Made by a program: the position numbers and the translations under genes
Notes under the pieces: generated by a model
The model's input: only the letters and a program-made list of their open reading frames with translations
Databases searched by the model: none
Told to the model about the DNA's origin: nothing
Shown here: positions 31,070-57,996 of the stretch, in pieces
How positions within the stretch are numbered: the first letter of the stretch is position 1
Layout: the number at the start of each line of letters is the position of its first letter
Assembly (NCBI GenBank): GCA_036501385.1
Contig: DASYAK010000013.1
Span: 21,023-85,022 of the forward strand
Direction of reading: 5' to 3'
Source: Gemmatimonadales bacterium
GTDB lineage: Bacteria; Gemmatimonadota; Gemmatimonadetes; Gemmatimonadales; GWC2-71-9
Length of the DNA: 64,000 nucleotides

Positions 31070-32175
31070 GCGAAGAACCAATGATCGTCGTGGGCCTGAT
31101 GTCGGGGACATCGCTCGACGGGATGGACGCGGCGGTGGTGCGGGTGCGCGGCCCGACGCGCCTCGAGCTGATCGGCTTCGCGCATCGCCCGTACACGGTG
31201 GCCGAACGCGGCCGGATCGAAGCGGTGCTGGGCGGCGCCGGAATCGGCGAAACCGCGCGCTTGCATACCGCGCTCGCCGACTGGGCGGTCGATGCCGTCG
31301 AGGTCGCGCTGGAGTTGTCGCACGTTCGCGCCGACGCGGTGGCTGCTATCGCGTTTCCGGGGCAGACGATCTGGCATGAGCCGCCGCTGGTGAGCTGGCA
31401 GCTTGGCGAGCCGGCGCTTCTCGCCGAGCGCTTCGGCGTCAAGGTGATCCACAACTTCCGCGCCCGGGACGTGGCCGCCGGCGGACAAGGAGCGCCGCTC
31501 GTCCCGGTGGTCGACGCCCTCTGCTTCGGCGCCACCGACCATCCTCGCATCCTCCTCAACCTTGGCGGAATGGCCAATGTGACGTGGGTGCGCCGCCGTG
31601 CCGATCTCGATTCGGTCGTTGCCGCCGACACCGGCCCCGGAATGGCGATCATCGATGCCGTAGCGCGCCTGGTCAATCCCGCCCTCACCTTTGACGACGA
31701 CGGCGCCCTCGCCGAACAGGGTCACGTCGACGAGTCAGTGCTGGCCGAACTGCTCCAGGCGCCGTTCTTCGCCGCGGCGCCGCCGCGCAGCACCGGGCGC
31801 GAACTCTTCGGGCAGCGTTATGCGGCGGAGTTGCATCGCCGCGTCCCGGGCCCCGATGGCGTGAGCACCGCGGTGGCACTCACCGTGGAAAGCGTGGCGA
31901 GGTTCTGCGAGACGCATCTTCCCGAGGCACCGGAAGTCGTGGCGGCGGGTGGTGGGACGCAGCATCCGGTGGTGATGCGAATGCTCGCAGCCCGCTTCGC
32001 CGCGCGAGGAATGGAGCTCCGGCGCTTCGACGATCTCTTCTTTGCATCGCAGGCCAAGGAGGCGGCCGCGTTTGCATTGATGGGATGGCTGACGCTGCAC
32101 GGACAGCCGGGGAACGTTCCGAGTGCTACTGGAGCGGATGGCCCGCGCGTCCTCGGATCGATTACCCCGCCCTGA
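31066..32175 (+). CDS. anmK: anhydro-N-acetylmuramic acid kinase
   Basis: 369 aa. GLMSGTSLDGMDAAVV, DVAAGGQGAPLVP and NLGGMANV are present. The start overlaps the murQ stop. Confidence 0.9.
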   Translation: MSEEPMIVVGLMSGTSLDGMDAAVVRVRGPTRLELIGFAHRPYTVAERGRIEAVLGGAGIGETARLHTALADWAVDAVEVALELSHVRADAVAAIAFPGQTIWHEPPLVSWQLGEPALLAERFGVKVIHNFRARDVAAGGQGAPLVPVVDALCFGATDHPRILLNLGGMANVTWVRRRADLDSVVAADTGPGMAIIDAVARLVNPALTFDDDGALAEQGHVDESVLAELLQAPFFAAAPPRSTGRELFGQRYAAELHRRVPGPDGVSTAVALTVESVARFCETHLPEAPEVVAAGGGTQHPVVMRMLAARFAARGMELRRFDDLFFASQAKEAAAFALMGWLTLHGQPGNVPSATGADGPRVLGSITPP

Positions 32176-32178
32176 TGG

Positions 32179-32193
32179 GGCGAAGTTTTCGCC
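32179..32193. terminator. short hairpin between convergent anmK and the PP2C gene
   Basis: The sequence is GGCGAA-GTT-TTCGCC, a 6-bp stem with a 3-nt loop, within a 32-nt spacer. It is weak. Confidence 0.2.
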
Positions 32194-32207
32194 GCGAACC
32201 GGCGGGA

Positions 32208-33128
32208 TCAGCGCCGGAGAAAGAGGGCGATGGCGATCAGCCCCATGACGACGGCAAGCGCGGTCAGCGCCACGCCAGTGGGCGATCCACCGCGCAATGG
32301 CTGCGGCGGGATTTCGATGGGACGCGCCACGGCTGGCATCGCGGCTGTGGGCTGGAGCGCCGGGCGTTCGGCCGAGGTGACGAGTTCGTGATACCCCGGT
32401 TCGTCGCTGGCTGTTTCGGGGAGGCCATCGCCGTCGAAACGAACCACCAGGACCGTGATATTGTCGGGACCGCCGCGTTCATTGGCCAGGTCCACCAGCC
32501 GACGGCAGATTGCGGCCAGGTCCGGCTCCTCGGCGACAGCGCGGGCGAGGTCGTCGCGGCGCACCACATTGGACAGCCCGTCGCTGCATATGATGAGGGA
32601 ATCGCCGCGCTGGAGCGGCTGCCAGCTCAGGTCGACCTTGATCAGGGCGTCGGGGCCGAGCGCCTGAAGAATGATGTTGCGGCGCTCGCTTGCCTCGGCC
32701 TGTTCCTCGGTGATTTCGCCGACGTCGACCAGGCGTTGAGTGAGCGACTGGTCGCGAGTGAGTTGCCGCGCCTCGCCGCCGCGCACGAGGTAGCCGCGCG
32801 AGTCGCCAATCTGCGCGAGATAGAGCCGGTCGCGCCAGAGTCCCGCGACAGTCGCCGTGGTTCCCATGCCGCGGACCTCGGGGTGTTCGCGGGCATAGTT
32901 GTGGATCTGGAGGTTGGCGAGTTCGACCGATTCCTTGAGACGATGGGCGAAGCGGTCCTCGGTGAGTTGCTTGTCGCTGCGCCAGGTGTCGATGAGGTAG
33001 CGGTGGATACCGGTCGCGGCCATTTCGCTGGCGACTTCACCGGCGGCGGCACCACCCATTCCGTCGGCGACGAGATAGAGCGCGCCGCGTTCGCCCACGT
33101 CCGAATCGGCGGTTCGCGACTCACGCAC
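32208..33128 (-). CDS. PP2C-family Ser/Thr protein phosphatase with C-terminal membrane anchor (coordinates to the first canonical start; the domain extends upstream)
   Basis: LVADGMGGAAAGEVAS, GMGTT, SDGL and DNITV are PP2C motifs. The C-terminal TM is GVALTALAVVMGLIAIALFL. The same frame stays open to 33323 and encodes SYFALTDRGRTRDHNEDTF (PP2C motif 1) upstream of the GTG at 33128. Confidence 0.85.
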   Translation of the reverse strand: MRESRTADSDVGERGALYLVADGMGGAAAGEVASEMAATGIHRYLIDTWRSDKQLTEDRFAHRLKESVELANLQIHNYAREHPEVRGMGTTATVAGLWRDRLYLAQIGDSRGYLVRGGEARQLTRDQSLTQRLVDVGEITEEQAEASERRNIILQALGPDALIKVDLSWQPLQRGDSLIICSDGLSNVVRRDDLARAVAEEPDLAAICRRLVDLANERGGPDNITVLVVRFDGDGLPETASDEPGYHELVTSAERPALQPTAAMPAVARPIEIPPQPLRGGSPTGVALTALAVVMGLIAIALFLRR

Positions 33129-33317
33129 CGCCGTCGTGGCGCCAAGATCCGCAATGAGGAAGGTGTCCTCATTGTGGTCCCTGGTCCGACCGCGGTCGGT
33201 GAGCGCGAAGTACGAAGCGCGGACGTGGGGCGTGGCGTCACTCCGGGTCGGGGCGTCCTTGCTGAAGGCGGGAAGATAGGAACCACACCGGGAGGCGGCA
33301 ACCCGAATGGACTGTAA

Positions 33318-35222
33318 GTGACGTCATTCACGAAGCTTACGGGCGTGGTCGCGGCCGTCGCGCTGGGCGTCGGCACCGCCTGCGCGCAGCAGACGCCCGA
33401 TTCATTGCCGCCGGTCCCCCCGGTTCATGGCGCGCTGCACATCGTGGTCGCGTATCCGCAACCCGGTACAGCGCTCGACGTCGGCGACTCGATTTTCCTC
33501 TTCGGAACCGTGGGCAACGGAGACGCCAGCCTCACGGTGGCGGGACAACTGGCCCACGTCGCCCCGAATGGCGCCTGGGTCGCCTGGATCGCCATTCCCG
33601 GTGATTCCACGTTCACCCTTCCCATCGTCGCCCGGCTCGGTCGCGATTCGGCGTCGTCGTCGCTGCGACTGGTTCGCGCCGGCTGGGTGCGTGAGACCGG
33701 CGCCTGGGTCGACCGGCAGTCGCTCTCGCCGACCGGTGATATCTGGATGCCACGCGATGAGCCACTGCCACTCACCGTCAGGGCGGCGCCCGGATCGACC
33801 GTGCGGCTTCTGATGATCGACGGCTCGTTTATTCGCTTCGCCGCGGACTCAATCCCCGCCCCTGTGCGCGAAGGCATTCGCGCCTTCGATCACGACGAAC
33901 GCAACTTCGAACGACCGGTGCGCGATGACCGGTATGTCGCGACGCTGCGAGGCGCGGTCAATCCCGCGCTGCGCGGTGACGTCGGTGCGCCGATGCAGGC
34001 CGGCACCAGCAGAACATCGCCGGTTCTCGAAGTCATCCACGCCGGCGACACGACGCGGGTAGGGTGGCCGCTCAGCGTGACACGAGAGACCACTGGTCCG
34101 ATCTCCGTCGTGCTGTCGAACGATTCGAGCGCCACAGACCATACCACGATCGGCCGCGCGTATCCCGGCGGGACCTATACCTGGTTTTTCGCGCCGGGAA
34201 CGCGCACCCGGGTCGACGGGGCGATCAACGACGAAGTGCGCCTGACCCTTTCACGGGAATCGGTCGCATGGGTCCCGAGGAGTGACGCACATCCGGCGGC
34301 AGCCGCCGACGACGCGCGTCACGCGATCATGGGCTCTCCCGTCCTGACATCAACCGGCTACGGCGCGAGGCTGCGGATTCCGCTCACGCGCGCGGTTCCA
34401 TCGCAAGTGGAAGAATCGGACCGCGGTGTCGTCATCCGGCTCTTCAACGCCGTGTCGAACGTCAACTGGATTCGCTACGGAGCCAACCAGCGTTTCGTCT
34501 CGCTGGTGACACCACGCCAGGAAACGGCCGACGTCGTGGCACTCGAGATCGCCTTCGACCAGCCGCTCTGGGGATGGCGAAGTCACATCGAAGGGACCGA
34601 CCTGATCTATGAATTCCGCCAGCCGCCGCAGATCGATTCGCTCCATCCGCTGGCTGGCCGCCGCATCGTGATCGATCCGGGACATCCGCCCAACGGCGCG
34701 TGTGGTCCTACCGGGCTCTGTGAACCGGAGGCCAATCTCGCTGTCGCACTCGTGGTGCGGGACGAACTCGCGGCCGCCGGCGCCGACGTGCGCCTCACCC
34801 GCACCGACAGTCGTCCCGTGTCGCTCGGCGCACGGGTGGCGTTCGCCGATTCGGTCGACGCCGAAATGCTGGTGTCGATTCACCAGAACGCACTCCCCGA
34901 TGGGCTCAATCCGTTCACCAACAGCGGGACGGCCACCTATTTCAATCATCCGCAGTCGCTTCCCCTGGCGCGCGCCGTTCAGCGGCGCCTGGTATCGCAT
35001 CTCAAGCTCCCCGACCTGGCGGTCACTCGCGGCGACCTCGCCCTGGTGCGCCCGACCTGGTACCCGGCGATTCTGACCGAGGGGCTCTTCCTGATGTTTC
35101 CCGACCAGGAGAACGCCTTGCGGACCGTGCAGGGGCAGCGCGCCTACGCGGCCGGGATCGTCGAAGGAATCACCGACTTTCTCGATGGCGTGCGCGCCTC
35201 CAGGGGGCGTGAGAGACCCTAG
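33318..35222 (+). CDS. N-acetylmuramoyl-L-alanine amidase (Amidase_3 / AmiC-type) with a long N-terminal domain
   Basis: 634 aa with a GTG start and the signal peptide MTSFTKLTGVVAAVALGVGTACAQ. The C-terminal pattern is VIDPGHPP...EANLAVALVVRDELAAAGADVRLTR...ADSVDAEMLVSIHQNA...GTATYF. Confidence 0.8.
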   Translation: MTSFTKLTGVVAAVALGVGTACAQQTPDSLPPVPPVHGALHIVVAYPQPGTALDVGDSIFLFGTVGNGDASLTVAGQLAHVAPNGAWVAWIAIPGDSTFTLPIVARLGRDSASSSLRLVRAGWVRETGAWVDRQSLSPTGDIWMPRDEPLPLTVRAAPGSTVRLLMIDGSFIRFAADSIPAPVREGIRAFDHDERNFERPVRDDRYVATLRGAVNPALRGDVGAPMQAGTSRTSPVLEVIHAGDTTRVGWPLSVTRETTGPISVVLSNDSSATDHTTIGRAYPGGTYTWFFAPGTRTRVDGAINDEVRLTLSRESVAWVPRSDAHPAAAADDARHAIMGSPVLTSTGYGARLRIPLTRAVPSQVEESDRGVVIRLFNAVSNVNWIRYGANQRFVSLVTPRQETADVVALEIAFDQPLWGWRSHIEGTDLIYEFRQPPQIDSLHPLAGRRIVIDPGHPPNGACGPTGLCEPEANLAVALVVRDELAAAGADVRLTRTDSRPVSLGARVAFADSVDAEMLVSIHQNALPDGLNPFTNSGTATYFNHPQSLPLARAVQRRLVSHLKLPDLAVTRGDLALVRPTWYPAILTEGLFLMFPDQENALRTVQGQRAYAAGIVEGITDFLDGVRASRGRERP

Positions 35223-35263
35223 CGGCTGCGGGCCAGCCTCGAACGGGGCGCATAGATTGGATA

Positions 35264-37591
35264 ATGGGTTTGCGTCCCGGCGGCTGGTTGCTGACTGCCC
35301 TCTTCATGATGCCGGTGATCGCTGCGCCGGCCCAATCGACCGCCCAGCGCGCCGAAATCGAGACGTTCCGCGACTCACTTGCGGCGGTCAACGATTCGGT
35401 TTCCCTGCTGGCCGCCGAGAAGCACCTGATTGCGCATGCCAGCCGCGAACTGCGCGACAGTGCCATGGCGCATTTGCGGCTCGGATTCCTCGCATTGCGA
35501 CTCGGCGATGTAGCCGGCCACAAGCATTACGAAGACGCCGCATCAGAATTCCAGTGGGCGGTCGATCTCCAATCCCGGTGGCCGTACGGATGGTTCGGAC
35601 TCGGTCTCGCCGAGCTCGGAGTCGGTGACTCGCCCATGCCCCTCATTCGGGGACTGCAGAACGCGCTGGGGCGGGACGCGCTGACTCGATCGGCCACAGA
35701 CTTTGCCAGGAGTGCCGACGTCGATCCGGCGTTCGTGCGTGGCCTGGTGGAGCTCAGCAACACGGCGCTGCGCCAGCGGATCAACGTCCGGCTGAATGTG
35801 GCCCTCGACGCGCTCCGCCACGCAGCGGCGACGCCGGCCGGTCACAATCCCGAGGTGCTGCTGGCGCGAGCGCGGATCGAGCGCGAGGTTGGCTCGGCCG
35901 ACTCCGCGCTGGCCGCAGCCGACGAACTCGTGGCACTTCGTCCCGACGACGCAGCGGCCCTCCTCGAACAGTCGCGTGCTCGCTTCCGCCTTGGCCGTCG
36001 CGACGGCGGCGATCCATGGTACCGTGGCCTGGCGATCGCCGACCCGGCGACCGTGGCACTCTATCGCAGCGACGTACAGTTCATCCTTCCCGACAGCACG
36101 CTCCGGGCATTCGACGCGGCCGCGGATCCCGCGCGAGTCACCCTGCTGCGGCGTTTCTGGAACCTGCGCGACCGCGACGAGCTGCATCTCCCCGGTGAGA
36201 GGCTGGTGGAACATTACCGGCGGCTCGAATACGCGCGGCGCACCTATCGCGTCGCGTCAACGCACCGGCACTACGACATCATCGAGCGCTACCGTCCGCC
36301 CACAGTGGACTACGACGATCGCGGCGTGGTGTATATCCGCCAGGGTGCTCCGGACGATCGGGCGTCGCTGGAACTTCCCGGCGTTCCGTTCAACGAGTCG
36401 TGGGTCTATCATCGCCCGGGCGGCGATCTTCTCTTCCACTTCGTGGCACAGGAGGGGGTCACCGATTTTCGACTCGTCGAAAGCGCGCTCGACGTGGTCG
36501 GTTACGCCAACGCGGTGCGGCTCGAGAATTCCGGCGATCTACAGGGGACCGAACTGCCGCTGCCGGCACGGATCGGCGCCCGGCAGGTTCGCATCAGCAG
36601 CGACAGCGCGTCGAAGCTTCGTCAGCGTGCCAGCGATGCGGCGCTGTCGCAGCTCGCCGAGCAGATCGTCAGGTCGCGCCAGAATCTCTCCCCCATCTAC
36701 CAGCGAATGCTCGCGTCAGGGCGGGGGAGCGCCTCGGGACTCGAGGCCGAAGAGCGCGACATCGGCAGGCGCAGCATCCGTATCGGGACGTCGACCGACA
36801 GCTGGCCGCTGCGATATTCAACCGCGCTTCCCGTTGCCGCGCAGGTGCTGGCCATTGGCGGTGACAGCACGACGTCGATCGTCCAGGTCGCGTACGCGGT
36901 TCCGGTCGATGCAATCGCAGCGGCACACGCCGATTCCACATCCTCGCTGCGAATCCGGGCGTCGATTCTGGGAACCGACGGTTCGATTGCCGCGACTGCC
37001 GATACATCAGTGGGCCCGGTGGGCGGACTGGCAATCGACCCGGCCCGCGAGCGGATCGGAGTGATAGCGCTCCCGGTCATGTCGGGCCATTACACTGTTC
37101 GGGTTGGGTTCGAACTTGGCCGCGCCGGAGCGGTCAGCACCCGCGACACCATCGATGTTTCTTCCGGCCGGGATACCACGCTGGCGCTCTCGGACGTGGC
37201 CCTCGGTGCGCGGAGCGTTCCCGTCTGGGGAAAGGGCCGCCGGGGTGACACGGTATGGATCAATCCGGGCGCGCAATTCCGGATCGCCGAGCCGCTGGAG
37301 CTGTATTTTGAGGTGAACGGTGTTCCGCGCGGCGCGTCTTACCGCTATGAAGTCAAGGTGACCCACCCGGGCGCGAAATCGTTGTTGAGTCCGCTGCTGC
37401 GATTGTTCGGCAAGGGGAGCTACGACTTCCGTGCGGCCACCACCCAGCGTGGGACGGGCTCGACCGACGTAGTGCACTTCGGCATCGACCTCTCCAACCA
37501 CAATCCGGGAAAGTACCTTTTGCAGGTGACGGTCTCGTCGGGTGGTCATGAAAGGACAAGCCGACGCCAGGAATTCGTGCTGATGCGATAG
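35264..37591 (+). CDS. secreted GWxTD-like domain protein, paralogue 1 of 4
   Basis: 775 aa with a signal peptide ending APAQ. Motifs include HLRLGFLALRL, EFQWAVDLQSRWPYGWFGLG, RRFWNLRDRD, EHYRRLEYARR, DDRGVVYIRQGAPDD and NESWVYHRPGGDLLFHF. The C-terminal block is LSDVALGARSVP...LYFEVNGV. Confidence 0.6.
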   Translation: MGLRPGGWLLTALFMMPVIAAPAQSTAQRAEIETFRDSLAAVNDSVSLLAAEKHLIAHASRELRDSAMAHLRLGFLALRLGDVAGHKHYEDAASEFQWAVDLQSRWPYGWFGLGLAELGVGDSPMPLIRGLQNALGRDALTRSATDFARSADVDPAFVRGLVELSNTALRQRINVRLNVALDALRHAAATPAGHNPEVLLARARIEREVGSADSALAAADELVALRPDDAAALLEQSRARFRLGRRDGGDPWYRGLAIADPATVALYRSDVQFILPDSTLRAFDAAADPARVTLLRRFWNLRDRDELHLPGERLVEHYRRLEYARRTYRVASTHRHYDIIERYRPPTVDYDDRGVVYIRQGAPDDRASLELPGVPFNESWVYHRPGGDLLFHFVAQEGVTDFRLVESALDVVGYANAVRLENSGDLQGTELPLPARIGARQVRISSDSASKLRQRASDAALSQLAEQIVRSRQNLSPIYQRMLASGRGSASGLEAEERDIGRRSIRIGTSTDSWPLRYSTALPVAAQVLAIGGDSTTSIVQVAYAVPVDAIAAAHADSTSSLRIRASILGTDGSIAATADTSVGPVGGLAIDPARERIGVIALPVMSGHYTVRVGFELGRAGAVSTRDTIDVSSGRDTTLALSDVALGARSVPVWGKGRRGDTVWINPGAQFRIAEPLELYFEVNGVPRGASYRYEVKVTHPGAKSLLSPLLRLFGKGSYDFRAATTQRGTGSTDVVHFGIDLSNHNPGKYLLQVTVSSGGHERTSRRQEFVLMR

Positions 37592-37614
37592 CGGTAGGTC
37601 GGACTGCTGCCCGG

Positions 37615-39840
37615 GTGCTGGGCATGGTCATGGCGCTAGCGCTGCTTGGTGAGTCCGCCCACGCCCAGGGTCCGATCGAGCGTGCCGTACTGCGGCAGTG
37701 GCGCGACTCCCTCGAGACGATCGACGACACCACCGCGCTCGAGGCGATCGAAGCCGCCCAGATCGACGCTGCACGCCAGGACCGCAACAATACGATGCGA
37801 CACCTGCGGCTCGGCTACCTCTCGTTGCGCCTCGCAGAGCTCACCACTGGCGCATCGCGCGCCGACGATGCCGCTGGCGAATTCCAGTGGGCCACCGAGT
37901 TGCAGCCAACCTGGCCCTTTCCCTGGTACGGACTCGGCGAAGCCGAACTTCTCGAGGCAGACCGGACCCGCGATGCGGTCAAGTTGCTATTCATGGTGTG
38001 GGGCCACGACATGTTTGGCGCTCCCGCTCGTCATATCGCCCGCAGTGCGGAAGTCGATTCGACCTTCATCGAGGGAGTCCTCGATATTGGCGAGGAGGCA
38101 CTGCGGCGCGGAATCCCCGCCCACCTCACTACCGCGCTCGGAGTGGTCCGCGAGATCGCGGCGTCGCCGGTGGCGCACAACCCGGCGGTTCTCCTGCTGC
38201 GCGGGCGCGTCGAACGTGAAACCGGAGATGTCGATTCGGCCATTGCGGCGTTCCGCGCGCTGACCGAGCGGCCAGGAACCCACGCCGCCGGTCTCTTCGA
38301 ACTCGGGCGCACCGAACTCATCGCGGGCCGGATCGCGGGGGTCGAGCCATGGTATGCGGGCCTCGCCGTCGCCGACACCGCGACGCTCGCGATGTATCGC
38401 TTCGATCTGTCGCTCGTGATGCCGGACACGATGATGCATTCGTTCGACGTGGCGCGGCCCGCGGCACGCGTGGCGCTGGTCCGGAACTTCTGGGACAGTC
38501 GCGATCCGGATGCTGTCGATGCCGGCCCTGATCGACTCCGCGAACATTATCGCCGGATCGATTACTCTCGCCGGCATTACCCCCTGGCGGCAGGGCGCCA
38601 CCGGTACGACTCGCTCCCGATCTACGATCCAACCGGCTCGCAGTTCGACGATCGTGGCCGCATCTATGTGCGTCACGGCGAGCCCGATGACCGCGCGACA
38701 TTGTCGATGATCGGACTGCCGCCCAATGAAAGCTGGGTCTATCGCCACCCCGGCGGCGACCTCCTCTTTCATTTCGCCAAGCCGGATAGTGCCGCCGGAT
38801 GGCGTCTGTACGAGAGCCTGCTGGACATCGCCGGACTGGGTGCCGCGGCCCAGCGCACCGGGCAGGGCAACGTGCGCGCCCGTCTCGAAGGCGGCGGCAT
38901 GATGGAGACCTACGGTGCGGGGTGGACCGCCCGGGCCGCGGAGGAACTCCTCTACTCACGGGAGAAACTCTCGCCCGTATATGGGCAGATGCTCTCGGCA
39001 GGACCGTCCGGCGCCCGCTCCACACAGGTGAGCGAGCGATCGGAGGGGCGCAGGAGCATCAAGGTCGGCCTGCAGACCGACAGCTGGAAGATGGGATATG
39101 AATTGCCGCTCACCGCGACGGTTGACGTTCTCGCTGTCGGATCCATTGGGTCGGCGCCCGAACTTCAGGTTGTCTTCGCCATTCCCGGCACATCGCTGTA
39201 CGCGCCACCATCGACCGGGCGAGTCGTCTATCCGATTCGCACGCGCGTCTCGGTCAAGAACGCCGCCGGCGAGACCATCGCCGCGGTCGATACCACCCGG
39301 AACTTCGTCGCCCCGGGTCCGATACCTGACGCGGACAATCTGCTCGGGCGGCTGCCGATCAGCGTGCCGCCGGGCGATTATGTCGTGCGCGTCGCGGTCG
39401 AGACACCGGGGCGCGGAGTCGTCGCGCAGCCCCACACCGTGCACGTCGCCTCGTTCGCCGCGCCCACGATGACCCTCTCGGATCTCGCGCTCGGCGCCCG
39501 CAGCGTGCCGCTTCCCTGGGCCACCGGCGCGAGCGATACCGCGTGGATCAATCCACTGCACACATTCAGGGTCTCGGAACCGGTGGAACTCTTCTTCGAA
39601 GTTGGAGGAGTGGCCCAGGGCGCACCGTATCACGCCGAGTACCGGATCTTCCGCTCGGGTCACCAGGACGCGGTGCTCGATCTGGGTTTTGACGGTGCGG
39701 CCACCGGCGTTCCCAACCGGGTGCATCGCGAACTCGACATCGGTCGTCTCGGAACGGGCGCCTACACGCTGGAGGTGACCGTCAGCTCTCCATCGGGTGA
39801 GAAGGCCGTCAGGCGGCGCGCGTTCACGGTGATCAAGTGA
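37615..39840 (+). CDS. secreted GWxTD-like domain protein, paralogue 2 of 4
   Basis: 741 aa with a GTG start and a signal peptide ending AHAQ. It has the same motif order as paralogue 1 (DDRGRIYVRHGEPDD, NESWVYRHPGGDLLFHF). Confidence 0.6.
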   Translation: MLGMVMALALLGESAHAQGPIERAVLRQWRDSLETIDDTTALEAIEAAQIDAARQDRNNTMRHLRLGYLSLRLAELTTGASRADDAAGEFQWATELQPTWPFPWYGLGEAELLEADRTRDAVKLLFMVWGHDMFGAPARHIARSAEVDSTFIEGVLDIGEEALRRGIPAHLTTALGVVREIAASPVAHNPAVLLLRGRVERETGDVDSAIAAFRALTERPGTHAAGLFELGRTELIAGRIAGVEPWYAGLAVADTATLAMYRFDLSLVMPDTMMHSFDVARPAARVALVRNFWDSRDPDAVDAGPDRLREHYRRIDYSRRHYPLAAGRHRYDSLPIYDPTGSQFDDRGRIYVRHGEPDDRATLSMIGLPPNESWVYRHPGGDLLFHFAKPDSAAGWRLYESLLDIAGLGAAAQRTGQGNVRARLEGGGMMETYGAGWTARAAEELLYSREKLSPVYGQMLSAGPSGARSTQVSERSEGRRSIKVGLQTDSWKMGYELPLTATVDVLAVGSIGSAPELQVVFAIPGTSLYAPPSTGRVVYPIRTRVSVKNAAGETIAAVDTTRNFVAPGPIPDADNLLGRLPISVPPGDYVVRVAVETPGRGVVAQPHTVHVASFAAPTMTLSDLALGARSVPLPWATGASDTAWINPLHTFRVSEPVELFFEVGGVAQGAPYHAEYRIFRSGHQDAVLDLGFDGAATGVPNRVHRELDIGRLGTGAYTLEVTVSSPSGEKAVRRRAFTVIK

Positions 39841-42068
39841 GCCCACGAGGACCGATCGCCTTCGCCCTTGTCGCGATGGTGCTGCATCGGTCGGCGGCAC
39901 AGACGCCTGTCGACCGGATTGCCGTGAATGCCTTCCGCGATTCGCTGCGAACAATCGCTGACACAGCCAGGCTCGGCACGATGGAGCGTCGGGAACATCT
40001 GGTGCTGCGGGCCCATCCTCGTGACGACGTCGAGCGCCTCCGTCTCGGCTTTACGCAGCTCCGTTACGGTGAGCTGGAACAAGAACACGACGATTTCAGG
40101 GAAGCCGGCGCGACCTTCGACGCAGTGACCGAGGCGCGAGGAGACTGGCCGCTCGCATGGCTCGGTCGGGGCCTGGCGCAGCTCAACATCGTCGACAATC
40201 AATCGGCGCTCGCGAACACTGTCGCCGGGTTCTTCAGCGGCGATCCGGTAGCCGATGCCGCGTCGAAGTTTGAACGGTGCAGCGACCTTGATCCAGGCGA
40301 TTCTGCCGCGCTGCTCACGCTCGCGTCAATCGCACTGGCGGACTATCACCCGGTATCACTCCGCGCCGCACTGCTGGCGCTACGACACGCCGCTGGCCGG
40401 CCGGTGGCTGCGAACCCTGCCGTGGCGCTGGACCGGGTGCGCATCGAACGGGTCGCGGGGAGTGCTGATTCTGCGCGAGCGCTGGCGGCGGCGCTGCTGA
40501 CCCGCGAGCCGGACGATCCCGCGACCCTGCTCGAGTCGGGCCGCGCGGCGTTCATTGAGGGCGACGATCGCGGCGCCAACGACTGGTTTCGCGGCCTCGC
40601 CGCCGCCGACAGCTCAGTCGTCCTCCTGTATCGCGCCGACCTCGCCGGGCTTCTCCCGGATTCGCTGCTGCGGCGATTCGAGCGGAGTGACAATGCCGGC
40701 CGGATCGCCCTGTTGCAGCGGTTTCTGGAGGTCGACGAGTTCGGCCAGCCGCGCGCGGCGGCGGCACGACTGCGCGAACACTATCGCCGGCTGGATCATG
40801 CGCGCATCGCCTTTGCGCGACCGACGCCGCGCTACCTCGGCGACATGGCCCCGGGGTTCCACCCAACCGGACGCGAGATGGACGAGCGTGGCTTGGTCTG
40901 GGTTCTCCATGGTCCGCCTGACGATCACACCTATCTCAACCTGATGGGCGCACCGCCGAATGAGACGTGGCATTACAAGGGGGACGACGGTGGTGAGCTC
41001 CTGTTCAACTTCATCCGTACCGATTCGACGGGATATCGCCGGGTGTCGAGCATCTTTGATGTCCTGGCCATGACCACGCCTCTGCGGGCGACCGGTCAGA
41101 GCGACGTGAAGGCGATGGCGGCGCGCGGCGAGGCGGTAGCGACGTATGGCGCGAGCTGGACGGCGCAAACGGTGCAGGAGATGCTCTACTCGCGGGAGAA
41201 CACCAGCCCGACCTACGCAAAGATGCTCTCGCAAGGAAAGCGCGGCGCGCTGGAATTGCAGCAGCAGGAACGCATCACCGGTGACAGCAGCATTGCTCAC
41301 GGCGAGAGCCGCGCCGTGAGCTACGAGCTGCCGCTCGAGGCACAAGTCGATGCTGTTGCGGTGAGCCGCGACGCGGGAGGAACGTTATTGCATCTGTCCT
41401 TTGCGATTCCGGGGACATCGCTCTACGCCGCGCCTGGCACCGGACCCGTCGTCTACGCGGTGCGGCTACGGGTGTCGGTGCTGCGCCAAGGGAGCGGCGA
41501 AGTTGTCGTGGCGATCGACACGCTGCGCCACTTCGTTGCGAAGCAGGCGATCGGGCCCGAGGGCGAACTCGTCGGACAGCTCCCGATTCATGTTCCCCCT
41601 GGCGATTACTCGGTGCGCGCCGTCGTGGAGACGCCGGGCCGCGGTGTGGTCGTTCCGCGTCAAGTCGTGCGCGTTGCGGCCGACGATGGAACGGCGCTCG
41701 ACCTTTCCGATGTGGCACTCGGGACGCGAAGTGTCCCGCTGCCGTGGCGGACCGGCCGCGGCGACACGGTCTGGGCCAACCCGCTGCGCACCTTTCATCG
41801 CACCGAGGCGATGCAGCTGTACTTCGAGGTCGCAGGAGTTGCCTCCGGGACGAAGTATCACGCATTCCTGGCGGTTTATCGTAAAGGCGCAGACAAGCCA
41901 GCGATTCGCCTCGGCTTCGCTCCGACGGCGTCGTCGGCACCGGACGTGGTGCAGCGCGACGTGGATATCAGCGGGCTCGGGCCGGGGGACTATCGGATGG
42001 AGGTTGCCGTGACCACTGCCGATGGCGCGCGGGCGACGCGACAGCGGGAGTTCACGGTACTCAAGTGA
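39837..42068 (+). CDS. secreted GWxTD-like domain protein, paralogue 3 of 4
   Basis: 743 aa. The GTG start overlaps the paralogue 2 stop (GTGA). The signal peptide ends SAAQ. Motifs include DERGLVWVLHGPPDD and NETWHYKGDDGGELLFNF. Confidence 0.6.
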   Translation: MSPRGPIAFALVAMVLHRSAAQTPVDRIAVNAFRDSLRTIADTARLGTMERREHLVLRAHPRDDVERLRLGFTQLRYGELEQEHDDFREAGATFDAVTEARGDWPLAWLGRGLAQLNIVDNQSALANTVAGFFSGDPVADAASKFERCSDLDPGDSAALLTLASIALADYHPVSLRAALLALRHAAGRPVAANPAVALDRVRIERVAGSADSARALAAALLTREPDDPATLLESGRAAFIEGDDRGANDWFRGLAAADSSVVLLYRADLAGLLPDSLLRRFERSDNAGRIALLQRFLEVDEFGQPRAAAARLREHYRRLDHARIAFARPTPRYLGDMAPGFHPTGREMDERGLVWVLHGPPDDHTYLNLMGAPPNETWHYKGDDGGELLFNFIRTDSTGYRRVSSIFDVLAMTTPLRATGQSDVKAMAARGEAVATYGASWTAQTVQEMLYSRENTSPTYAKMLSQGKRGALELQQQERITGDSSIAHGESRAVSYELPLEAQVDAVAVSRDAGGTLLHLSFAIPGTSLYAAPGTGPVVYAVRLRVSVLRQGSGEVVVAIDTLRHFVAKQAIGPEGELVGQLPIHVPPGDYSVRAVVETPGRGVVVPRQVVRVAADDGTALDLSDVALGTRSVPLPWRTGRGDTVWANPLRTFHRTEAMQLYFEVAGVASGTKYHAFLAVYRKGADKPAIRLGFAPTASSAPDVVQRDVDISGLGPGDYRMEVAVTTADGARATRQREFTVLK

Positions 42069-42072
42069 CGCT

Positions 42073-44379
42073 GTGGGTTACTCTCCTGGCGCAGGTACCG
42101 CACTTCTCCTCTCGGTGACCGCGGTGGCGATCGCGGCCCCGATCGCCGCGCAGACACCCGCCCAGCGACTGGCACTGCGGTACTTCCGCGACTCGCTGCA
42201 GCTGGCGCAGGATACCGTGCCGCTACACGACCTCGAAGTCCGCGGCATCGCCACCGCTCGCGTCGATCGGGACAATGCGATCGTCCATCTGCGACTCGGC
42301 TTCCTCGCACTTCGTATCGACGACCTGAGTGGAAACCACCGCAGGATCGACGACGCCGAGAGCGAGTTCCAGTGGGCGACGGAATTGCGGCCCGGATGGC
42401 CGTATCCGTGGTTCGGCCTGGGTCTGGCTCTCGCGCGCGCGCCCAACCGGGCGTCGGGATTTGCCGGTGGTCTCTGGACGATGCTCGGGATCGATCGCGA
42501 CGCGCGCGCCGGGCAGGCCTTTGCGCGCTCGATTCGCGCCGACCCTTCGTTCGTTGACGGCGTTGCTGCCTTTGCAGAGACGGCGCTCGATCAACGACTC
42601 GCCGCGCCGGTTGACGCAGCGCTCAATGCGCTCCGCCTGGTGCAGGCATCGCCGCTGGGCTGGGATCCGAATCTCCTGCTCGATCGCGGCCGGCTCGAAC
42701 GTCTCGCCGGCCACGCGGATTCGGCTCGCCTCGCATTTCAGCGAGCGCGAATGCTCTCGCCCGATCCGGCGATGGCCGATCTGGAACTGGCGCGAACCCT
42801 TCCGCTCACCGCGGACACGCTTGCGGCGGAGCCCGGTCAGCCGGCACCGCTCGAATCGGCGTATTACGCCGCCGCGGAGAGCGACGATCCCGATGTCGTC
42901 GCGGGATGTCGCCGCGACCTGCATCCGATCGCGCCCGATTCGACGCTGCGGCGGTTCGATGCGGTTCACGGTGCGGCACGCGTTGCCTGGCTCAAGACCT
43001 TCTGGGAGGAACGAGCCGCACCGGACCTGCGAAGCCCGGCGGCGCGGCTGGCGGAACACTTTCGCCGCTGGGATTACGCCGAGCGGCACTTCCGGCTGCC
43101 GCCATTTCATCGCGTCTATCAGTGGGGAATCGAGGTGTATCAGAGTCACGATCCTGACCTCGACGACCGCGGCATCATCTGGATCCGTCATGGCGCGCCA
43201 TCGGTGCGGATTGTCTGGCCGGTGTCACAGCCGCGCGCTCCCCCGCCGGCTCCCACGACGATTTTCTACATTCCGCCACCGCGGCCAGGTTCCCTTCTCA
43301 TCGATCCGCCGGTCGGCGATCAGCCGACGTTCGGCAACGAGACCTGGAGATATCGTCAGCCTGACGGTGACCTCGTCCTGCATTTCGCAGCCAATGAAGA
43401 ACCCGATGATTACCGGTTGATCGAAGGCGTGATGCAACTCGACGTTGGTTACGACGCCCTGGCCGAACGCGAAGGCGATCTTCCCGGTCTCTCCGAGTTG
43501 CTCCACTCCGGTCCGGTGACGCGCGGCATCCTGGCTGAGCGCGACCGGGTGTCGGGAAAGCAGAACATCGCTCGTGCCACCACGACCACCTCCTGGCCGC
43601 GCCGCTATCGAATCACCCTCGGCGGCAGGGCCGAGTGGCTGGCGGCCGGGGTCAAGGATTCGAACGCACTGGTGCACATCATCTTTGCGGTGGACGCGGC
43701 GATGCTCCGCCGGCTTCCCGGCGACCACCGCAACGGCACCGTGCCGATCACGCTGCGCGCCGCATTTGTCGATCGCGCCGGAAACCCGGTCGCGACCCTC
43801 GACACCGTCGAGGTCGTCCGTCAACCCGCGGCGTCGGCCTTCCTTGTTGCGTCGCGCGCCGAGATACCGGTGCCGGCCGGCGCGTACCGGATGCGGCTCA
43901 ACGTCGAGGCGAATCCGCAGGTCGGTGTCGTTTTTCCGCTCGATTCGCTCGACGTACCTGCCGTGCGCGGCGCCGACCTGGCGCTGTCGTCCATCCTGCT
44001 CGGTGTTCCGGGAAAGGTTCTCCCGTGGGTGGCGACACCGGGCGATACCATCTGGATCTCCCCGGACAATATTTATCGCCGCGGCGACACGATGGCGGTC
44101 TTTTTTCAGCTCTATGGCGTCCATCGGGGCGAGTCATATACCGTGCAGCTCGGGCTCCGGCGCCAGCGGAGTTTTCTCTCCCGGCTCATGGGCTCGGCCG
44201 ATGAGTCGGTGATCCTTCGCGAAGAGCTGCATTTTCCCGGTCCCACGGCCGAAATCCGGCGGGCCATTGCCCTGGATGGAGTGGCGGCGGGGAAGTACCA
44301 GCTGGAACTGGTGGTGAGCGGGAACGGGTCGCGGCTGGTCCGTCGGCGGGGCGTGATTGTGGAGAACTCCAGTAAATGA
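42073..44379 (+). CDS. secreted GWxTD-like domain protein, paralogue 4 of 4 (with Pro-rich insertion)
   Basis: 768 aa if translation starts at the GTG at 42073, which gives the signal peptide (M)GYSPGAGTALLLSVTAVAIAAPIAAQ, 4 nt after the paralogue 3 stop. The ORF-track start at 42022 would overlap paralogue 3 by 47 nt. Motifs are DDRGIIWIRHGAP, a Pro-rich insert, then NETWRYRQPDGDLVLHF. Confidence 0.6.
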   Translation: MGYSPGAGTALLLSVTAVAIAAPIAAQTPAQRLALRYFRDSLQLAQDTVPLHDLEVRGIATARVDRDNAIVHLRLGFLALRIDDLSGNHRRIDDAESEFQWATELRPGWPYPWFGLGLALARAPNRASGFAGGLWTMLGIDRDARAGQAFARSIRADPSFVDGVAAFAETALDQRLAAPVDAALNALRLVQASPLGWDPNLLLDRGRLERLAGHADSARLAFQRARMLSPDPAMADLELARTLPLTADTLAAEPGQPAPLESAYYAAAESDDPDVVAGCRRDLHPIAPDSTLRRFDAVHGAARVAWLKTFWEERAAPDLRSPAARLAEHFRRWDYAERHFRLPPFHRVYQWGIEVYQSHDPDLDDRGIIWIRHGAPSVRIVWPVSQPRAPPPAPTTIFYIPPPRPGSLLIDPPVGDQPTFGNETWRYRQPDGDLVLHFAANEEPDDYRLIEGVMQLDVGYDALAEREGDLPGLSELLHSGPVTRGILAERDRVSGKQNIARATTTTSWPRRYRITLGGRAEWLAAGVKDSNALVHIIFAVDAAMLRRLPGDHRNGTVPITLRAAFVDRAGNPVATLDTVEVVRQPAASAFLVASRAEIPVPAGAYRMRLNVEANPQVGVVFPLDSLDVPAVRGADLALSSILLGVPGKVLPWVATPGDTIWISPDNIYRRGDTMAVFFQLYGVHRGESYTVQLGLRRQRSFLSRLMGSADESVILREELHFPGPTAEIRRAIALDGVAAGKYQLELVVSGNGSRLVRRRGVIVENSSK

Positions 44380-44516
44380 TAGATTTGTGATGTGACTCCC
44401 CATCCGGCCGATAGTTGCTGGCGATTCTCCCGCATTGCCGCGTACCCCCGCTTTTCCTACCTTGGAACTCCCTACGCTGTCCCTCGTTCAACCTTGGGCA
44501 TTTGAAGGATCAGATC

Positions 44517-47078
44517 ATGAGCACCGCTGCCTCGCGAGGCGCAGTCGAGCTGTCGCCGAATGCGATTACCGTCCTCGAAAAGCGCTATCTCGTCAAGGAC
44601 GAAGCGGGCCTTCCTGCCGAACGCCCCGAGGATCTCTTCTGGCGAGTGGCCACGACGGTCGCGGCCCCCGACGCCAAGTACGGAGCGTCGCAGGGCGCGG
44701 TGACGGAATTGGCGCGCGCGTTCTACGACCTGATGGCGCAACGGCTCTTCATGCCCAATTCACCGACGCTGATGAACGCCGGTCGTCCCCTCGGCCAGCT
44801 GTCGGCGTGTTTCGTCCTGCCGGTCGATGACACGCTGTCCAACGGTGAGAGCGGGATCTACGACACCCTGCGCTCGATGGCGCTGGTGCATCAATCGGGC
44901 GGCGGCACCGGCTTCTCGTTCTCGCGACTGCGCGCGCGCAACGACATCGTCCGCTCCACCATGGGCGTGGCGTCGGGGCCGGTGTCGTTCATGTCGCTCT
45001 ACGATTCGTCGACCGATGTCGTCAAGCAGGGCGGGACGCGCCGCGGCGCCAACATGGGGATCCTCCGCGTCGATCATCCCGATATTCTCGACTTCATCGA
45101 GTGCAAGAGCGACACGACCAAGATCACCAACTTCAACATCTCGGTGGCGATCACCGACGCATTCATGCAGGCGCTCGCCGCCGACGAGCAGTACGACCTC
45201 GTCGATCCGCGCACGTCACAGGTGACCGGGCGGCTCAGCGCCTCGACAATCTGGCAGATGATCATTCATGGTGCCTGGAAGACCGGTGAACCGGGCGTCT
45301 TCTTCATCGATCGCGCCAATCATTACAACCCGGTGCCGCATCTCGGATCGTACGAGGCGACCAACCCCTGCGGCGAACAGCCGCTGCTGCCGTACGATGT
45401 CTGCAACCTCGGATCGATCAATCTTGGTGCGTTCGTCACCCCGCAGAACGACATCGATTGGGAGCGGTTGCGCCGGGTCGTGCAGTTGACCACGCACTTC
45501 CTCGAAAACGTCATCGACGCGAACCACTATCCGCTCCCCGAAATCACCGCACTCGCCCAGCGGATCCGGCGCATCGGGCTCGGCGTGATGGGGCTTGCCG
45601 ATCTCTTCGTCCGGGTCGGCGTGCCGTACGATTCCGAGGAAGCGGTCAACCTCGGTCGCGAGCTGCAGCAGTTCGTCGACGACGAAGCGAAGAACGAATC
45701 GGAGCGCCTCGCCACGCTGCGCGGTGTCTTCCCCGAATGGGAGCGCAGCATCTGGGGCCCCGATGCCACGTGCGCCCGTGACGCGCAGGGGAATCGCATC
45801 CGCCCGATGCGCAAGTTGCGCAACTGCAACGTCACGACCGTGGCGCCGACCGGCACGATCTCGATCATCGCGAGCTGTTCGTCGGGAATCGAGCCGCTCT
45901 TCGCCGTCGCGTTCATGCGCAACCAGGCCGGCGTTCTCATGCCCGACGTCAACGAGGACTTCGTTGCGATCGCAAAGCGCGAGGACTGGTACAGCGCCGA
46001 CCTGATGCGCCGCATCGCCGAGCATGGGCACATCAATTTCGACGAAGTGCCGGCACGCTGGCAGCGTGTGTTCGTCACCGCCAACCAGATCGCGCCCGAG
46101 TGGCACATCCGGATGCAGGCCGCGTTCCAGGAATACAACGACTCGGCGATTTCGAAGACCTGCAACTTCGCCAACGACGCCACCGAAGAGTACGTCGAAC
46201 AGATCTATCGGCTCGCCTACGAACTCGGCTGCAAGGGCGTCACCGTCTACCGCGACGGATCGCGTGACATGCAGGTGCTCTCGACTGGGTCGACGGCCAA
46301 GAAGGTTCACGAACAGGCCACGACGAGCGGCAAGTCCGAGGCGCGGAGTGACCTGGTCATGGCGACCGGTGAGTTCCCGGCGAGCAGCCCCGAGTTGAAC
46401 GCCCGCGTCGCGGCTGCCGATCAGGCGGCGCATGCCGTCGAGCTCGAGGCTGAGGTGGCGCAGCTCAAGCAGATGGTGCATGAACTCGAAAGCGAAAACC
46501 TGCAGCGTCGTCAGAAGCGGTCGCGGCCCGAACTCCTCCGTGGATCGACGCGCCGGGTCTCGACGCCGCTGGGTGATCTCTACGTCACGATTACCGAGGA
46601 CGACCGGGGCCAGCCATTCGAAGTCTTCATGTCGCTCGGCAAGGCCGGTGGCGCGCTCATGGCTGATGTCGAAGCGGTTGGCCGGTTGATATCGCTCGCG
46701 CTGCGCTCGGGCATCCCTCTCACGGCGATCCATCGCCAGTTGCGCGGCATCTCGTCCGATCGCGCTATCGGACTGGGCCCAAGCAAGGTGATGTCGGTCC
46801 CGGATGCCGTCGGCATCGCCCTGGAGAAGTACGCCGCCGACAAGCAGGGAGTGCAGCAGGAACTTCTCAACCTGCGCAGTGCCCCGCCGGCTGACGCGAT
46901 GTCGTCGAGTGATGTCGCGGCCCCGCCTGCCGCGATCATCGCCGATGGTGGCGAGCAGATGATTCTCGGCGGGACGCAGGAAACACTGGCCGGCGCCTGC
47001 CCCGATTGTGGATCGCAGCTCGAATACGCAGAAGGGTGCGCCAAGTGCCATGTGTGCGGCTTCTCGGAGTGCGGCTGA
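44517..47078 (+). CDS. nrdJ: class II (adenosylcobalamin-dependent) ribonucleotide reductase
   Basis: 853 aa from the ATG at 44517. Motifs are ITVLEKRYL, NSPTLMNAG, NPCGEQPLLPYDVCNLGSINL and VYRDGSR. The C-terminal Zn ribbon is CPDCGSQLEYAEGCAKCHVCGFSEC. Confidence 0.9.
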   Translation: MSTAASRGAVELSPNAITVLEKRYLVKDEAGLPAERPEDLFWRVATTVAAPDAKYGASQGAVTELARAFYDLMAQRLFMPNSPTLMNAGRPLGQLSACFVLPVDDTLSNGESGIYDTLRSMALVHQSGGGTGFSFSRLRARNDIVRSTMGVASGPVSFMSLYDSSTDVVKQGGTRRGANMGILRVDHPDILDFIECKSDTTKITNFNISVAITDAFMQALAADEQYDLVDPRTSQVTGRLSASTIWQMIIHGAWKTGEPGVFFIDRANHYNPVPHLGSYEATNPCGEQPLLPYDVCNLGSINLGAFVTPQNDIDWERLRRVVQLTTHFLENVIDANHYPLPEITALAQRIRRIGLGVMGLADLFVRVGVPYDSEEAVNLGRELQQFVDDEAKNESERLATLRGVFPEWERSIWGPDATCARDAQGNRIRPMRKLRNCNVTTVAPTGTISIIASCSSGIEPLFAVAFMRNQAGVLMPDVNEDFVAIAKREDWYSADLMRRIAEHGHINFDEVPARWQRVFVTANQIAPEWHIRMQAAFQEYNDSAISKTCNFANDATEEYVEQIYRLAYELGCKGVTVYRDGSRDMQVLSTGSTAKKVHEQATTSGKSEARSDLVMATGEFPASSPELNARVAAADQAAHAVELEAEVAQLKQMVHELESENLQRRQKRSRPELLRGSTRRVSTPLGDLYVTITEDDRGQPFEVFMSLGKAGGALMADVEAVGRLISLALRSGIPLTAIHRQLRGISSDRAIGLGPSKVMSVPDAVGIALEKYAADKQGVQQELLNLRSAPPADAMSSSDVAAPPAAIIADGGEQMILGGTQETLAGACPDCGSQLEYAEGCAKCHVCGFSECG

Positions 47079-47178
47079 CGGAATGAGTCGCGTGTCGCCC
47101 TGACGTTTGTCACCCTGAGCAAAGCGAAGGGGCGGAGCTCAACGGCGAAGAGATCCGCACAGTTCGGGCGACCCGCCC

Positions 47179-47222
47179 ACCACAACGGGGACTCCGTCTC
47201 GCGGCGGGGCCCCCGTTGTGGT
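47179..47222. terminator. GC-rich hairpin downstream of nrdJ
   Basis: There is a 12-bp stem, ACCACAACGGGG (47179-47190) with CCCCGTTGTGGT (47211-47222), and a 20-nt loop. No U-tract follows. Confidence 0.35.
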
Positions 47223-47305
47223 ATCACCCGACGACGATGGATCTCGATGTGGCCCGTGGCCGCAGGTGTCACATCCCAACGTCGTCCACCGCTCAGGACA
47301 CCTCG

Positions 47306-47785
47306 ATGACCACCGATCCCAATCCGCTCCTCCGACACACGCTCGCCACGCTCGCCTATCGCGCCGACAAGGCGCTGCGCGACGCACCGCCGGGCTTCAG
47401 CACTTTTCGAGCAGGTCCGTCGTCGCGTTCGCCCGGCGAAATCCTGGCGCATCTCGGCGATCTCCTCGACTGGGCTGCTTTCCTCGCACGCGGTACGCAG
47501 CAGTGGCAGCCAGTCACTCCGGGCGATTGGGACGCTGATGTGCTGCGCTTCTTCGCGGCGGTGCAAGCCCTCGACGTCGTGCTGCAATCGGACTTGGTCA
47601 CCGACGACGCGTCGCGACGCGTCTTTCAGGGACCGATCGCCGATGCGCTGACCCATGTGGGCCAGCTCAACTTCCTGCGTCGGCTCGCGGGAAGCCCCGT
47701 CAAGGCTGAGAACTATGCCCGCGCAAGCGCGATTCGCGCCGGGAATCTCGGCCCCAGATTCGGTGGCCCCCGCGCCGAGTTCTGA
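47306..47785 (+). CDS. DinB-family-like four-helix protein
   Basis: 159 aa from the ATG at 47306 (the ORF-track start at 47216 is possible). Spaced His residues (ILAHLGD, ALTHVGQL) resemble the DinB-type metal triad. This is a weak call. Confidence 0.45.
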   Translation: MTTDPNPLLRHTLATLAYRADKALRDAPPGFSTFRAGPSSRSPGEILAHLGDLLDWAAFLARGTQQWQPVTPGDWDADVLRFFAAVQALDVVLQSDLVTDDASRRVFQGPIADALTHVGQLNFLRRLAGSPVKAENYARASAIRAGNLGPRFGGPRAEF

Positions 47786-57272: not shown

Positions 57273-57282
57273 GAGCAGACCA

Positions 57283-57996
<714 letters not shown>

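Follow-up and report, generated by a model that had tools for sequence, protein, structure and literature searches.

A tandem array of four predicted exported GWxTD-related proteins downstream of a wall amidase gene in a Gemmatimonadales genome

Four paralogous genes in tandem

The window analysed here, a stretch of 64,000 nucleotides (nt) on contig DASYAK010000013.1 of a Gemmatimonadales bacterium (assembly GCA_036501385.1), has a G+C content of 64-69% and contains four consecutive, co-directional open reading frames (ORFs) that follow a gene for an exported Amidase_3 enzyme and code for large proteins related to the GWxTD family (copies 1 to 4, Table 1). The analyses described below firmly establish this array as an old, selected and lineage-specific tandem expansion of a predicted exported protein, composed of a tetratricopeptide repeat (TPR)-like arm, a GWxTD core and a double beta-sandwich, whose gene holds a conserved position after that of the wall amidase.

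An earlier note, made from the sequence alone, had described the four ORFs as tandem paralogues separated by very short spacers, and both the coordinates and the spacers were found to be correct. The products are 33-41% identical in pairwise comparisons over their full length of ~740 amino acids (aa), and roughly 130 columns are invariant in the four-way alignment; this similarity, which is far beyond chance, confirmed that the four genes are paralogues. As re-read from the DNA, the junctions measure 41 nt between the amidase gene and copy 1, 23 nt between copies 1 and 2 and 4 nt between copies 3 and 4, and the start of copy 3 overlaps the stop of copy 2 (GTGA). This stop/start overlap is kept, as ATGA, in the related locus L001. 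Co-transcription of the array is plausible from the spacing and from the conserved 4-nt overlap. A promoter and terminator scan from 31000 to 47500 gave counts at or below the shuffled expectation and was hence uninformative on the transcription unit, and no Rfam match was found over the whole window. For copy 4, the GTG at 42073 is preferred as the start over the ATG at 42022, as it is in frame, lies 4 nt past the stop of copy 3 and agrees with the L001 orthologue, which starts 15 nt after copy 3 of that locus and has a signal peptide of the same kind.

By eye, the N-terminus of each copy is a short hydrophobic stretch ending in A-x-A before a Gln and resembles a Sec signal, as the earlier note had read it. 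The same pattern was seen in the relatives inspected, and the Gln at +1 is invariant across 59 family members. From these N-termini, export of the four products to the periplasm is predicted. Searched against Pfam and NCBIfam at E <= 1, none of the four copies matched a type IX secretion sorting domain (TIGR04183 / PF18962 or type B), and scans of the copies against the same two databases gave no LytM/Peptidase_M23 domain.

The motif blocks listed in the earlier note as shared by the four proteins are present as a consensus, from which two copies depart: copy 3 has TFDAV for EFQWA and FLEVDE for FW..RD, and copy 4 has FWEERA in the latter block. The Pro-rich insert of about 30 aa reported for copy 4 was confirmed; it measures ~32 aa and lies in the loop between DDRG and NETW. 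In all copy-4-type orthologues, the loop that leads to the NE(S/T)W strand is elongated; its Pro-rich form is confined to the close relatives of the window.

Table 1. Coordinates of the array, of the segments of its second product and of the genes upstream
Feature	Position	Strand	Length or residues	Remarks
MurQ (MurNAc-6-P etherase)	ORF start 29948	+		true start probably near 30160
AnmK	31066-32175	+		cytoplasmic peptidoglycan recycling, like MurQ; upstream in the conserved block
Stp1/IreP-like PP2C Ser/Thr phosphatase	32208-33128	-		221 bits vs curated cut-off of 230; divergent from the amidase gene; position conserved in relatives
Exported Amidase_3 enzyme	33318-35222	+	634 aa	signal peptide; ~430 aa N-terminal part without domain assignment; catalytic domain at residues 450-624
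Copy 1 (G1)	35264-37591	+	775 aa	orthologue of the single-copy post-amidase gene of most Gemmatimonadales
Copy 2 (G2)	37615-39840	+	741 aa	copy used for the AlphaFold2 model
Copy 2, signal peptide			residues 1-17
Copy 2, TPR-like helical arm	37672-38499	+	residues 20-295	at least 15 paired helices in the AlphaFold2 model
Copy 2, GWxTD-homologous alpha/beta core	38398-38814	+	residues ~262-400
Copy 2, helical linker			residues 402-485	from the AlphaFold2 model
Copy 2, two C-terminal beta-sandwiches	39118-39834	+	residues 502-611 and 625-740
Copy 3 (G3)	39837-42068	+	743 aa	start overlaps the stop of copy 2
Copy 4 (G4)	42073-44379	+	768 aa	from the GTG; the longest ORF, from the ATG at 42022, has 785 aa

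Family membership and domain architecture

The resemblance to GWxTD proteins suggested in the earlier note was borne out. With TIGR04514 (NCBIfam GWxTD_dom, cut-off of 28 bits), copies 1 and 2 scored 31.0 and 35.7 bits, whereas copies 3 and 4 remained below the cut-off with 19.5 and 21.3 bits (E-values of 1e-3 and 3e-4, respectively). The gathering threshold of PF20094 (26.9 bits) was not reached by any copy, the sole match being that of copy 3 (13.3 bits, E 0.069). A core-only profile built on 15 sequences retrieved 49 proteins at E-values down to 2e-10, among them 46 for which PF20094 is a precomputed annotation, and hhalign aligned the core of the window family with an alignment of twelve canonical domains over 115 columns (probability 99.0%, E 3.6e-18). 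Together, the TIGR04514, core-profile and hhalign results show that the window proteins are true but divergent members of the family that fail its eponymous motif.

The blocks common to the window family and the canonical domains are FW.RRD, EHYRR, DRG.IYI..G.P, E.W.Y and a final hydrophobic strand. The G-W-x-T-D motif itself is missing: canonical PGWKTDRG aligns with x-x-x-D-D-R-G, in which the G and the W are not conserved and only D-R-G is invariant. The replacement of GW.T by x-(F/Y/M/L)-D-(D/E) proposed in the earlier note was thus off by about one residue, since T-D-R-G aligns with D-D-R-G and the canonical GW falls beside an insertion of ~14 aa. At this position, the window family has a longer loop (residues 327-340) of low predicted confidence.

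When the four window cores were searched exhaustively with HMMER, 1,994 clusters (50% identity) came up at E <= 0.001, 128 of them at E <= 1e-30. The best 150 clusters are mostly of 700-790 aa, with the core at residues ~260-430, and a word-indexed search returned over 5,000 canonical GWxTD members. All close homologues are proteins of Gemmatimonadales or of Gemmatimonadota metagenome-assembled genomes, with the exception of one that carries an Anaeromyxobacteraceae label (P0107). Where they are named, PGAP and JGI call them "GWxTD domain-containing protein", so that the family is not undescribed at the level of annotation. Both the family and the window subfamily are already recognised by annotation pipelines, and the array is an expanded form of a known kind. 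No papers on the family (TIGR04514, PF20094, IPR030959) were found in the literature searched. One 1217-aa representative, P0393, contains two GWxTD-core stretches and may be two tandem copies fused in one ORF.

The AlphaFold2 (AF2) model of copy 2, which was built on a 59-sequence alignment, has a mean predicted local distance difference test score (pLDDT) of 87.6 and a predicted template modelling score of 0.75. In its core, a long helix spanning residues 304-321 and another at 346-354 are followed by four strands within residues 359-399. The TPR-like character that the earlier note had assigned to the N-terminal half is suggested by the helical repeats of the model, by Pfam TPR matches located around residues 190-260, all of which are below their gathering thresholds (the best being TPR_14, 22.7 vs 23.5), and by a match of the full-family profile to consensus designed TPR proteins in the PDB at E 1.8e-15. 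Besides TPR proteins, this profile gave only a marginal PKD-like match in the PDB and nothing for the core, and a profile of the canonical core likewise found no solved relative there.

A separate model of the core (residues 255-495, pLDDT 85.8) had no match at E < 0.001 in a Foldseek search of the PDB; the best hit, to a cystatin-like protein at E 0.26, was treated as noise. The full model matched only tandem beta-sandwich proteins (transglutaminase C-terminal barrels, RbmA, VPS26/arrestin and adhesins such as AgI/II), with low TM-scores. Among these, the transglutaminases TG3 and factor XIII were the top matches, and they likewise have two consecutive C-terminal beta-barrels or sandwiches after an alpha/beta domain. 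The match extends over ~285 columns at a root-mean-square deviation of ~16 A and, because of this size and deviation and because the other top matches are tandem beta-sandwich proteins, it is most likely limited to the two beta-sandwiches. As the full model had only these low-scoring matches to tandem beta-sandwich proteins, we discarded a transglutaminase reading. The core-only model matches no transglutaminase, and neither an invariant Cys nor a Cys-His-Asp triad is present.

A hidden Markov model (HMM) of the C-terminal part of the window family matched ORFs that continue canonical GWxTD genes at two loci of acidobacterial type (L085, E 2.4e-9, and L088, E 1.2e-4), which points to the core plus two beta-sandwiches as the ancestral unit. 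An HMM of the N-terminal arm found no match adjacent to any of five canonical acidobacterial GWxTD genes examined, and the TPR arm therefore appears to be an addition specific to the window subfamily. The neighbourhoods of the five canonical genes, several of which are fragmented in their assemblies, showed no recurrent informative partner, except for one BlaI/BlaR1-like pairing. In two proteins, P0134 and P0152, a canonical GWxTD domain in the C-terminal part follows a BlaR1-like M56 peptidase region, and the gene of P0134 (JGI 3300047160, contig of 209,994 nt) comes immediately after one for a BlaI/Penicillinase_R-type repressor. Judged by this domain order and gene order, the examples show GWxTD as an extracytoplasmic module that occupies the place of a sensor.

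Copy number, divergence and gene neighbourhood

Gene order and copy number were surveyed in 83 related loci. Most genomes carry one copy, a subclade carries two or three, and four copies were found only in the window and in L001, the orthologues of which are 63-80% identical. In a neighbour-joining tree of 113 copies (midpoint-rooted, without support values), the single-copy genes cluster with the position-1 copies, which points to copy 1 as the ancestral gene. The copy-2-type and copy-4-type genes form separate deep clades, and copy 3, being nested inside the copy-2 clade, appears to be the latest duplication. Relative to the L001 orthologues, the ratios of non-synonymous to synonymous substitution rates (dN/dS) are 0.14, 0.14, 0.20 and 0.14 for copies 1 to 4, copy 3 being the fastest, as compared to 0.15 for the amidase, 0.07 for AnmK and 0.06 for the ribonucleotide reductase (RNR) encoded downstream; with dS values of 0.9-1.4, which are near saturation, these ratios are rough. 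All four copies are under purifying selection. The ratios and the separate clades agree with the earlier description of the copies as old and maintained. As for the envelope-associated system suggested there, no sign of a multi-component one was seen; the array is the lineage-specific expansion of a gene of which most Gemmatimonadales have one copy.

In one relative (L002, 12241-14473, identical to L007), two ORFs of 228 and 510 aa take the place of an intact third GWxTD copy, which points to either an assembly frameshift or a genuine pseudogene. The same genome also lacks a copy-4-type gene.

In the numbering of copy 2, the invariant residues of the core are R285, R307, H311, R314, D345, R347, G348, G355, P357, N371, W374 and F387. 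Single-copy and copy-1 genes retain every core residue almost without exception, and copy 1 of the window retains all those that are invariant in the family. The extra copies differ at otherwise invariant sites. R296 is replaced by Q or D, W293 is replaced by L in copy 3, which has lost R296 as well, and D297 is A or G among copy-4-type genes (Ala in the window copy). D346 is replaced by A in many copy-2-type genes and Y312 by F in copy 4. The polar residues strictly conserved in both the Gemmatimonadales and the canonical subfamilies are those of E-H-Y-R-R, D-R-G, R-R-D and E-x-W-x-Y; no conserved Cys or Ser nucleophile is found among the invariant columns.

The array is part of a block whose order is conserved across the surveyed loci: a gamma-glutamyltranspeptidase (GGT) gene on the minus strand, MurQ, AnmK, a PP2C phosphatase gene on the minus strand, Amidase_3, one or several GWxTD-like genes and a class II RNR gene. 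The peptidoglycan-turnover neighbourhood indicated in the earlier note is thus present, with MurQ, AnmK and the amidase. More distant genomes have NagZ and an AmpG-like MFS gene inserted upstream, after AnmK, and in more distant relatives ~3 kb, including a Ser/Thr kinase gene, are inserted between the GWxTD gene and the RNR gene. The GWxTD gene directly follows the Amidase_3 gene in about 65 of the 83 Gemmatimonadales loci, and this junction is the most stable of the block, remaining intact while genes come or go on both sides. No relevant paper on Gemmatimonadota and peptidoglycan recycling came up in the literature searched.

The AmiC-type label initially given to the amidase had to be abandoned. 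Its catalytic domain of 175 aa aligns end to end with CwlD/CwlV/LytH-type enzymes, and among PDB chains it matches LytH (7tj4_B, E 7.4e-7) and also CwlD (7rag_B), whereas the alignment with AmiA/B/C stops after the first ~80 residues, there being neither an AmiB/AmiC regulatory insert nor a blocking helix. The NCBIfam AmiC score is 24 bits vs a cut-off of 700, the AmiA and AmiB scores are likewise far below their cut-offs, and Pfam gives Amidase_3 only, with no AMIN domain. In its zinc-site motif, SIHQNA, an Asn occupies the position of LytH D195. The activator-dependent enzymes LytH, AmiB and AmiC have an Asp at this position, and many self-active amidases have an Asn (Page et al. 2022, PMC9245657). 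Neither hallmark of activator dependence, i.e. a blocking helix or an Asp as the fourth zinc ligand, is therefore present in the window amidase.

Several gene models of the window call for a remark. The true start of MurQ is probably that given in Table 1, as homologue alignments begin at residues 65-75; the listed ORF overlaps the 5' end of the divergent GGT gene (28306-30045, minus strand). A plus-strand ORF at 32085-33317 (410 aa, no Pfam match) was rejected as spurious, the real gene there being that of the minus-strand PP2C. The class II RNR (TSCPD domain, 44415-47078) downstream of the array probably starts near 44517 and not at the TTG at 44415, as most homologue alignments begin at residue ~35. 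The RNR of L002/L007 (14666-18304, 1212 aa) contains an intein with a LAGLIDADG endonuclease, which the window RNR lacks. Further downstream, from 53376 to 63766 on the plus strand, three MacB-like permeases of ~800 aa with duplicated MacB_PCD and FtsX domains are encoded at 53376-55841, 58073-60466 and 61316-63766. Between their genes lie those of an HlyD-type adaptor (56022-57272) and of two ABC ATPases (57241-57996 and 60633-61292). On the minus strand, a 670-aa ORF without Pfam match (2627-4639) adjoins an ORF (4656-6323) with a prepilin-type N-terminal methylation motif at residues 168-193; the start of the latter is probably over-extended, and the two may be a pilin- or pseudopilin-like pair.

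Possible functions and comparison with known systems

We tentatively favour a reading in which the four products are exported envelope-binding or scaffold proteins, with a core that recognises an anionic ligand, a TPR arm that docks partners, copy 1 as the original gene and later copies that have become specialised. The arm of ~270 aa would dock other proteins, as modules of the TPR type usually do. The invariant residues R285, R307, E310-H311-Y312-R313-R314, D345-D346-R347 and E372-W374-Y376, which we infer from their sequence positions to form a cluster, would be the putative site at which an anionic component of the envelope binds, the most plausible candidate being an element of peptidoglycan or of muropeptides. 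The helical linker and the two Ig-like beta-sandwiches would serve as a spacer or attachment module, and the resemblance of this tail to adhesion and scaffold proteins in the Foldseek search is in line with such a role. Copy 1 is probably co-transcribed with the upstream CwlD/LytH-type amidase gene, and its product is probably an adaptor or scaffold that works with the amidase or with other wall enzymes. In favour of such a role speak the stable amidase-GWxTD junction, the tight spacing of the genes and the precedent of ActH, a TPR partner of LytH (see below). Copies 2, 3 and 4 are old duplicates maintained by selection. As parts of their putative binding site and one surface loop have changed, they have probably come to serve other ligands or partners, or else are non-binding partners of copy 1. 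Ligand binding and the partnership with the amidase are what we infer at this point.

Several observations weigh against this reading. No experiment or paper on any GWxTD protein was found in the literature searched, and the case for ligand binding draws on residue conservation in a core without structural relative. None of the five canonical GWxTD genes inspected in other phyla has an amidase gene as its neighbour. In at least seven loci (L017, L019, L024, L032, L060, L061 and L071), which belong to a subclade, the amidase gene is absent from the site between the PP2C gene and the first GWxTD copy, where a gap of ~300-400 nt is found and one to three GWxTD copies are retained. The amidase itself, with its Asn at the D195 position and without blocking helix, looks self-active. 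Finally, members of a single order share the arrangement of the whole block, GGT and RNR included, so that the adjacency of the amidase gene may be inherited rather than functional.

An equally tentative alternative, which we regard as about as likely, is that the proteins have no link to peptidoglycan and are general exported proteins (for adhesion, matrix or chaperone-like functions) that lie next to the amidase gene by inherited gene order in Gemmatimonadales. The whole block is conserved, including the unrelated GGT and RNR genes, the amidase gene is missing from the site in a subclade that retains two or three copies, the canonical genes of Acidobacteriota have no amidase neighbours, and RbmA, AgI/II and other proteins of matrix or adhesin type are similar to the beta-sandwich tail. 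Such an alternative would, however, leave aside the fact that the amidase-GWxTD junction is more stable than any other in the block, despite insertions on both sides, and that the two genes are co-directional and closely spaced.

A catalytic core, with a fold absent so far from solved structures, is rather unlikely; it might be, for instance, a hydrolase or lyase with an envelope polymer as its substrate. The TPR arm and the beta-sandwiches would then only target the enzyme, and the extra copies would have altered specificity, copy 3 possibly being a pseudo-enzyme. The polar residues common to the Gemmatimonadales and canonical subfamilies would fit an active site, for which a core without PDB relative leaves room, and the loss of W293 and R296 in a copy 3 that is still under selection is a pattern known from pseudo-enzymes. 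However, no catalytic family was matched in Pfam, NCBIfam or the PDB, the invariant columns offer no Cys or Ser nucleophile, and the sensor position in BlaR1-like proteins suits binding better than catalysis.

A bolder version of the envelope-binding reading, which we regard as improbable, would take the core as an unrecognised periplasmic fold for the recognition (or processing) of peptidoglycan or muropeptides and the TPR-GWxTD proteins as a new class of partners that steer wall enzymes, the CwlD/LytH-like amidase among them. The paralogues would then differ in specificity or assemble into a hetero-oligomer, and the same fold would be the sensing domain of acidobacterial BlaR1-like regulators.

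By analogy with ActH and LytH, the product of copy 1 might also activate the upstream amidase directly, with a TPR arm that binds the catalytic domain and stabilises the metal site, but this is quite improbable. A TPR partner for a helix-less Amidase_3 enzyme has a precedent, since LytH, which is such an enzyme, needs no more of ActH than its extracellular TPRs for activation (Page et al. 2022, PMC9245657). The LytH and CwlD matches of the window amidase, which lacks the AmiB/AmiC insert, and the conserved adjacency of its gene to copy 1 would fit. Against it stand the Asn of the zinc site, as in activator-independent amidases, the presence of one amidase gene for up to four paralogues and the absence of the amidase gene beside the array in the loci listed above; the similarity to ActH was seen only as generic TPR, no dedicated sequence comparison with ActH having been made. 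Decaying or recently amplified duplicates without separate functions can be dismissed on the dN/dS ratios, which are close to that of the amidase, and on the tree, with four intact ORFs, low mutual identity and deep clades common to many genomes, the split third copy of L002/L007, which would favour decay, coming from a metagenome assembly in which other genes are fragmented too.

GWxTD is a large family without assigned function or solved structure, and the locus offers three handles on it. The first is the stable association of the gene with that of an exported cell-wall amidase, next to genes for peptidoglycan recycling. The second is the natural variation from one to four paralogues, which shows which "invariant" residues can change, and the third is a confident model of a core without PDB relative. 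If the link to the wall is true, the locus would point to a novel type of partner for wall enzymes, in two soil phyla that have received little study; if not, the array is simply an expanded family of exported proteins.

Compared with canonical GWxTD proteins, which come mostly from Acidobacteriota (e.g. Terriglobales), the window family shares the alpha/beta core, the N-terminal signal peptide and the double beta-sandwich. It differs by the additional TPR-like arm of ~250-270 aa ahead of the core, by the loss of the GW with a longer low-confidence loop in its place and a PF20094 score below threshold, and by the lack of a Gly-rich insert before the E.W.Y strand, a different insert being found in copy-4-type genes only. 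Unlike BlaR1/MecR1-type M56 sensor-proteases, the window proteins have neither an M56 nor a transmembrane part, and no BlaI-like gene lies nearby. GerS-CwlD of C. difficile, like ActH-LytH of S. aureus, involves a partner-activated Amidase_3 enzyme, and the window resembles these pairs in that a short CwlD/LytH-like catalytic domain without blocking helix is encoded beside a predicted exported protein with a TPR-like arm. However, ActH is a rhomboid membrane protein with three TPRs and without GWxTD core or beta-sandwiches, and Asp195, which is catalytically required in LytH, is replaced by Asn in the window amidase. In diderm bacteria, NlpI, LpoA and CpoB are periplasmic TPR adaptors or regulators that dock peptidoglycan synthases or hydrolases; they are lipoproteins or small TPR proteins without GWxTD core, and their likeness to the window proteins is one of description only.

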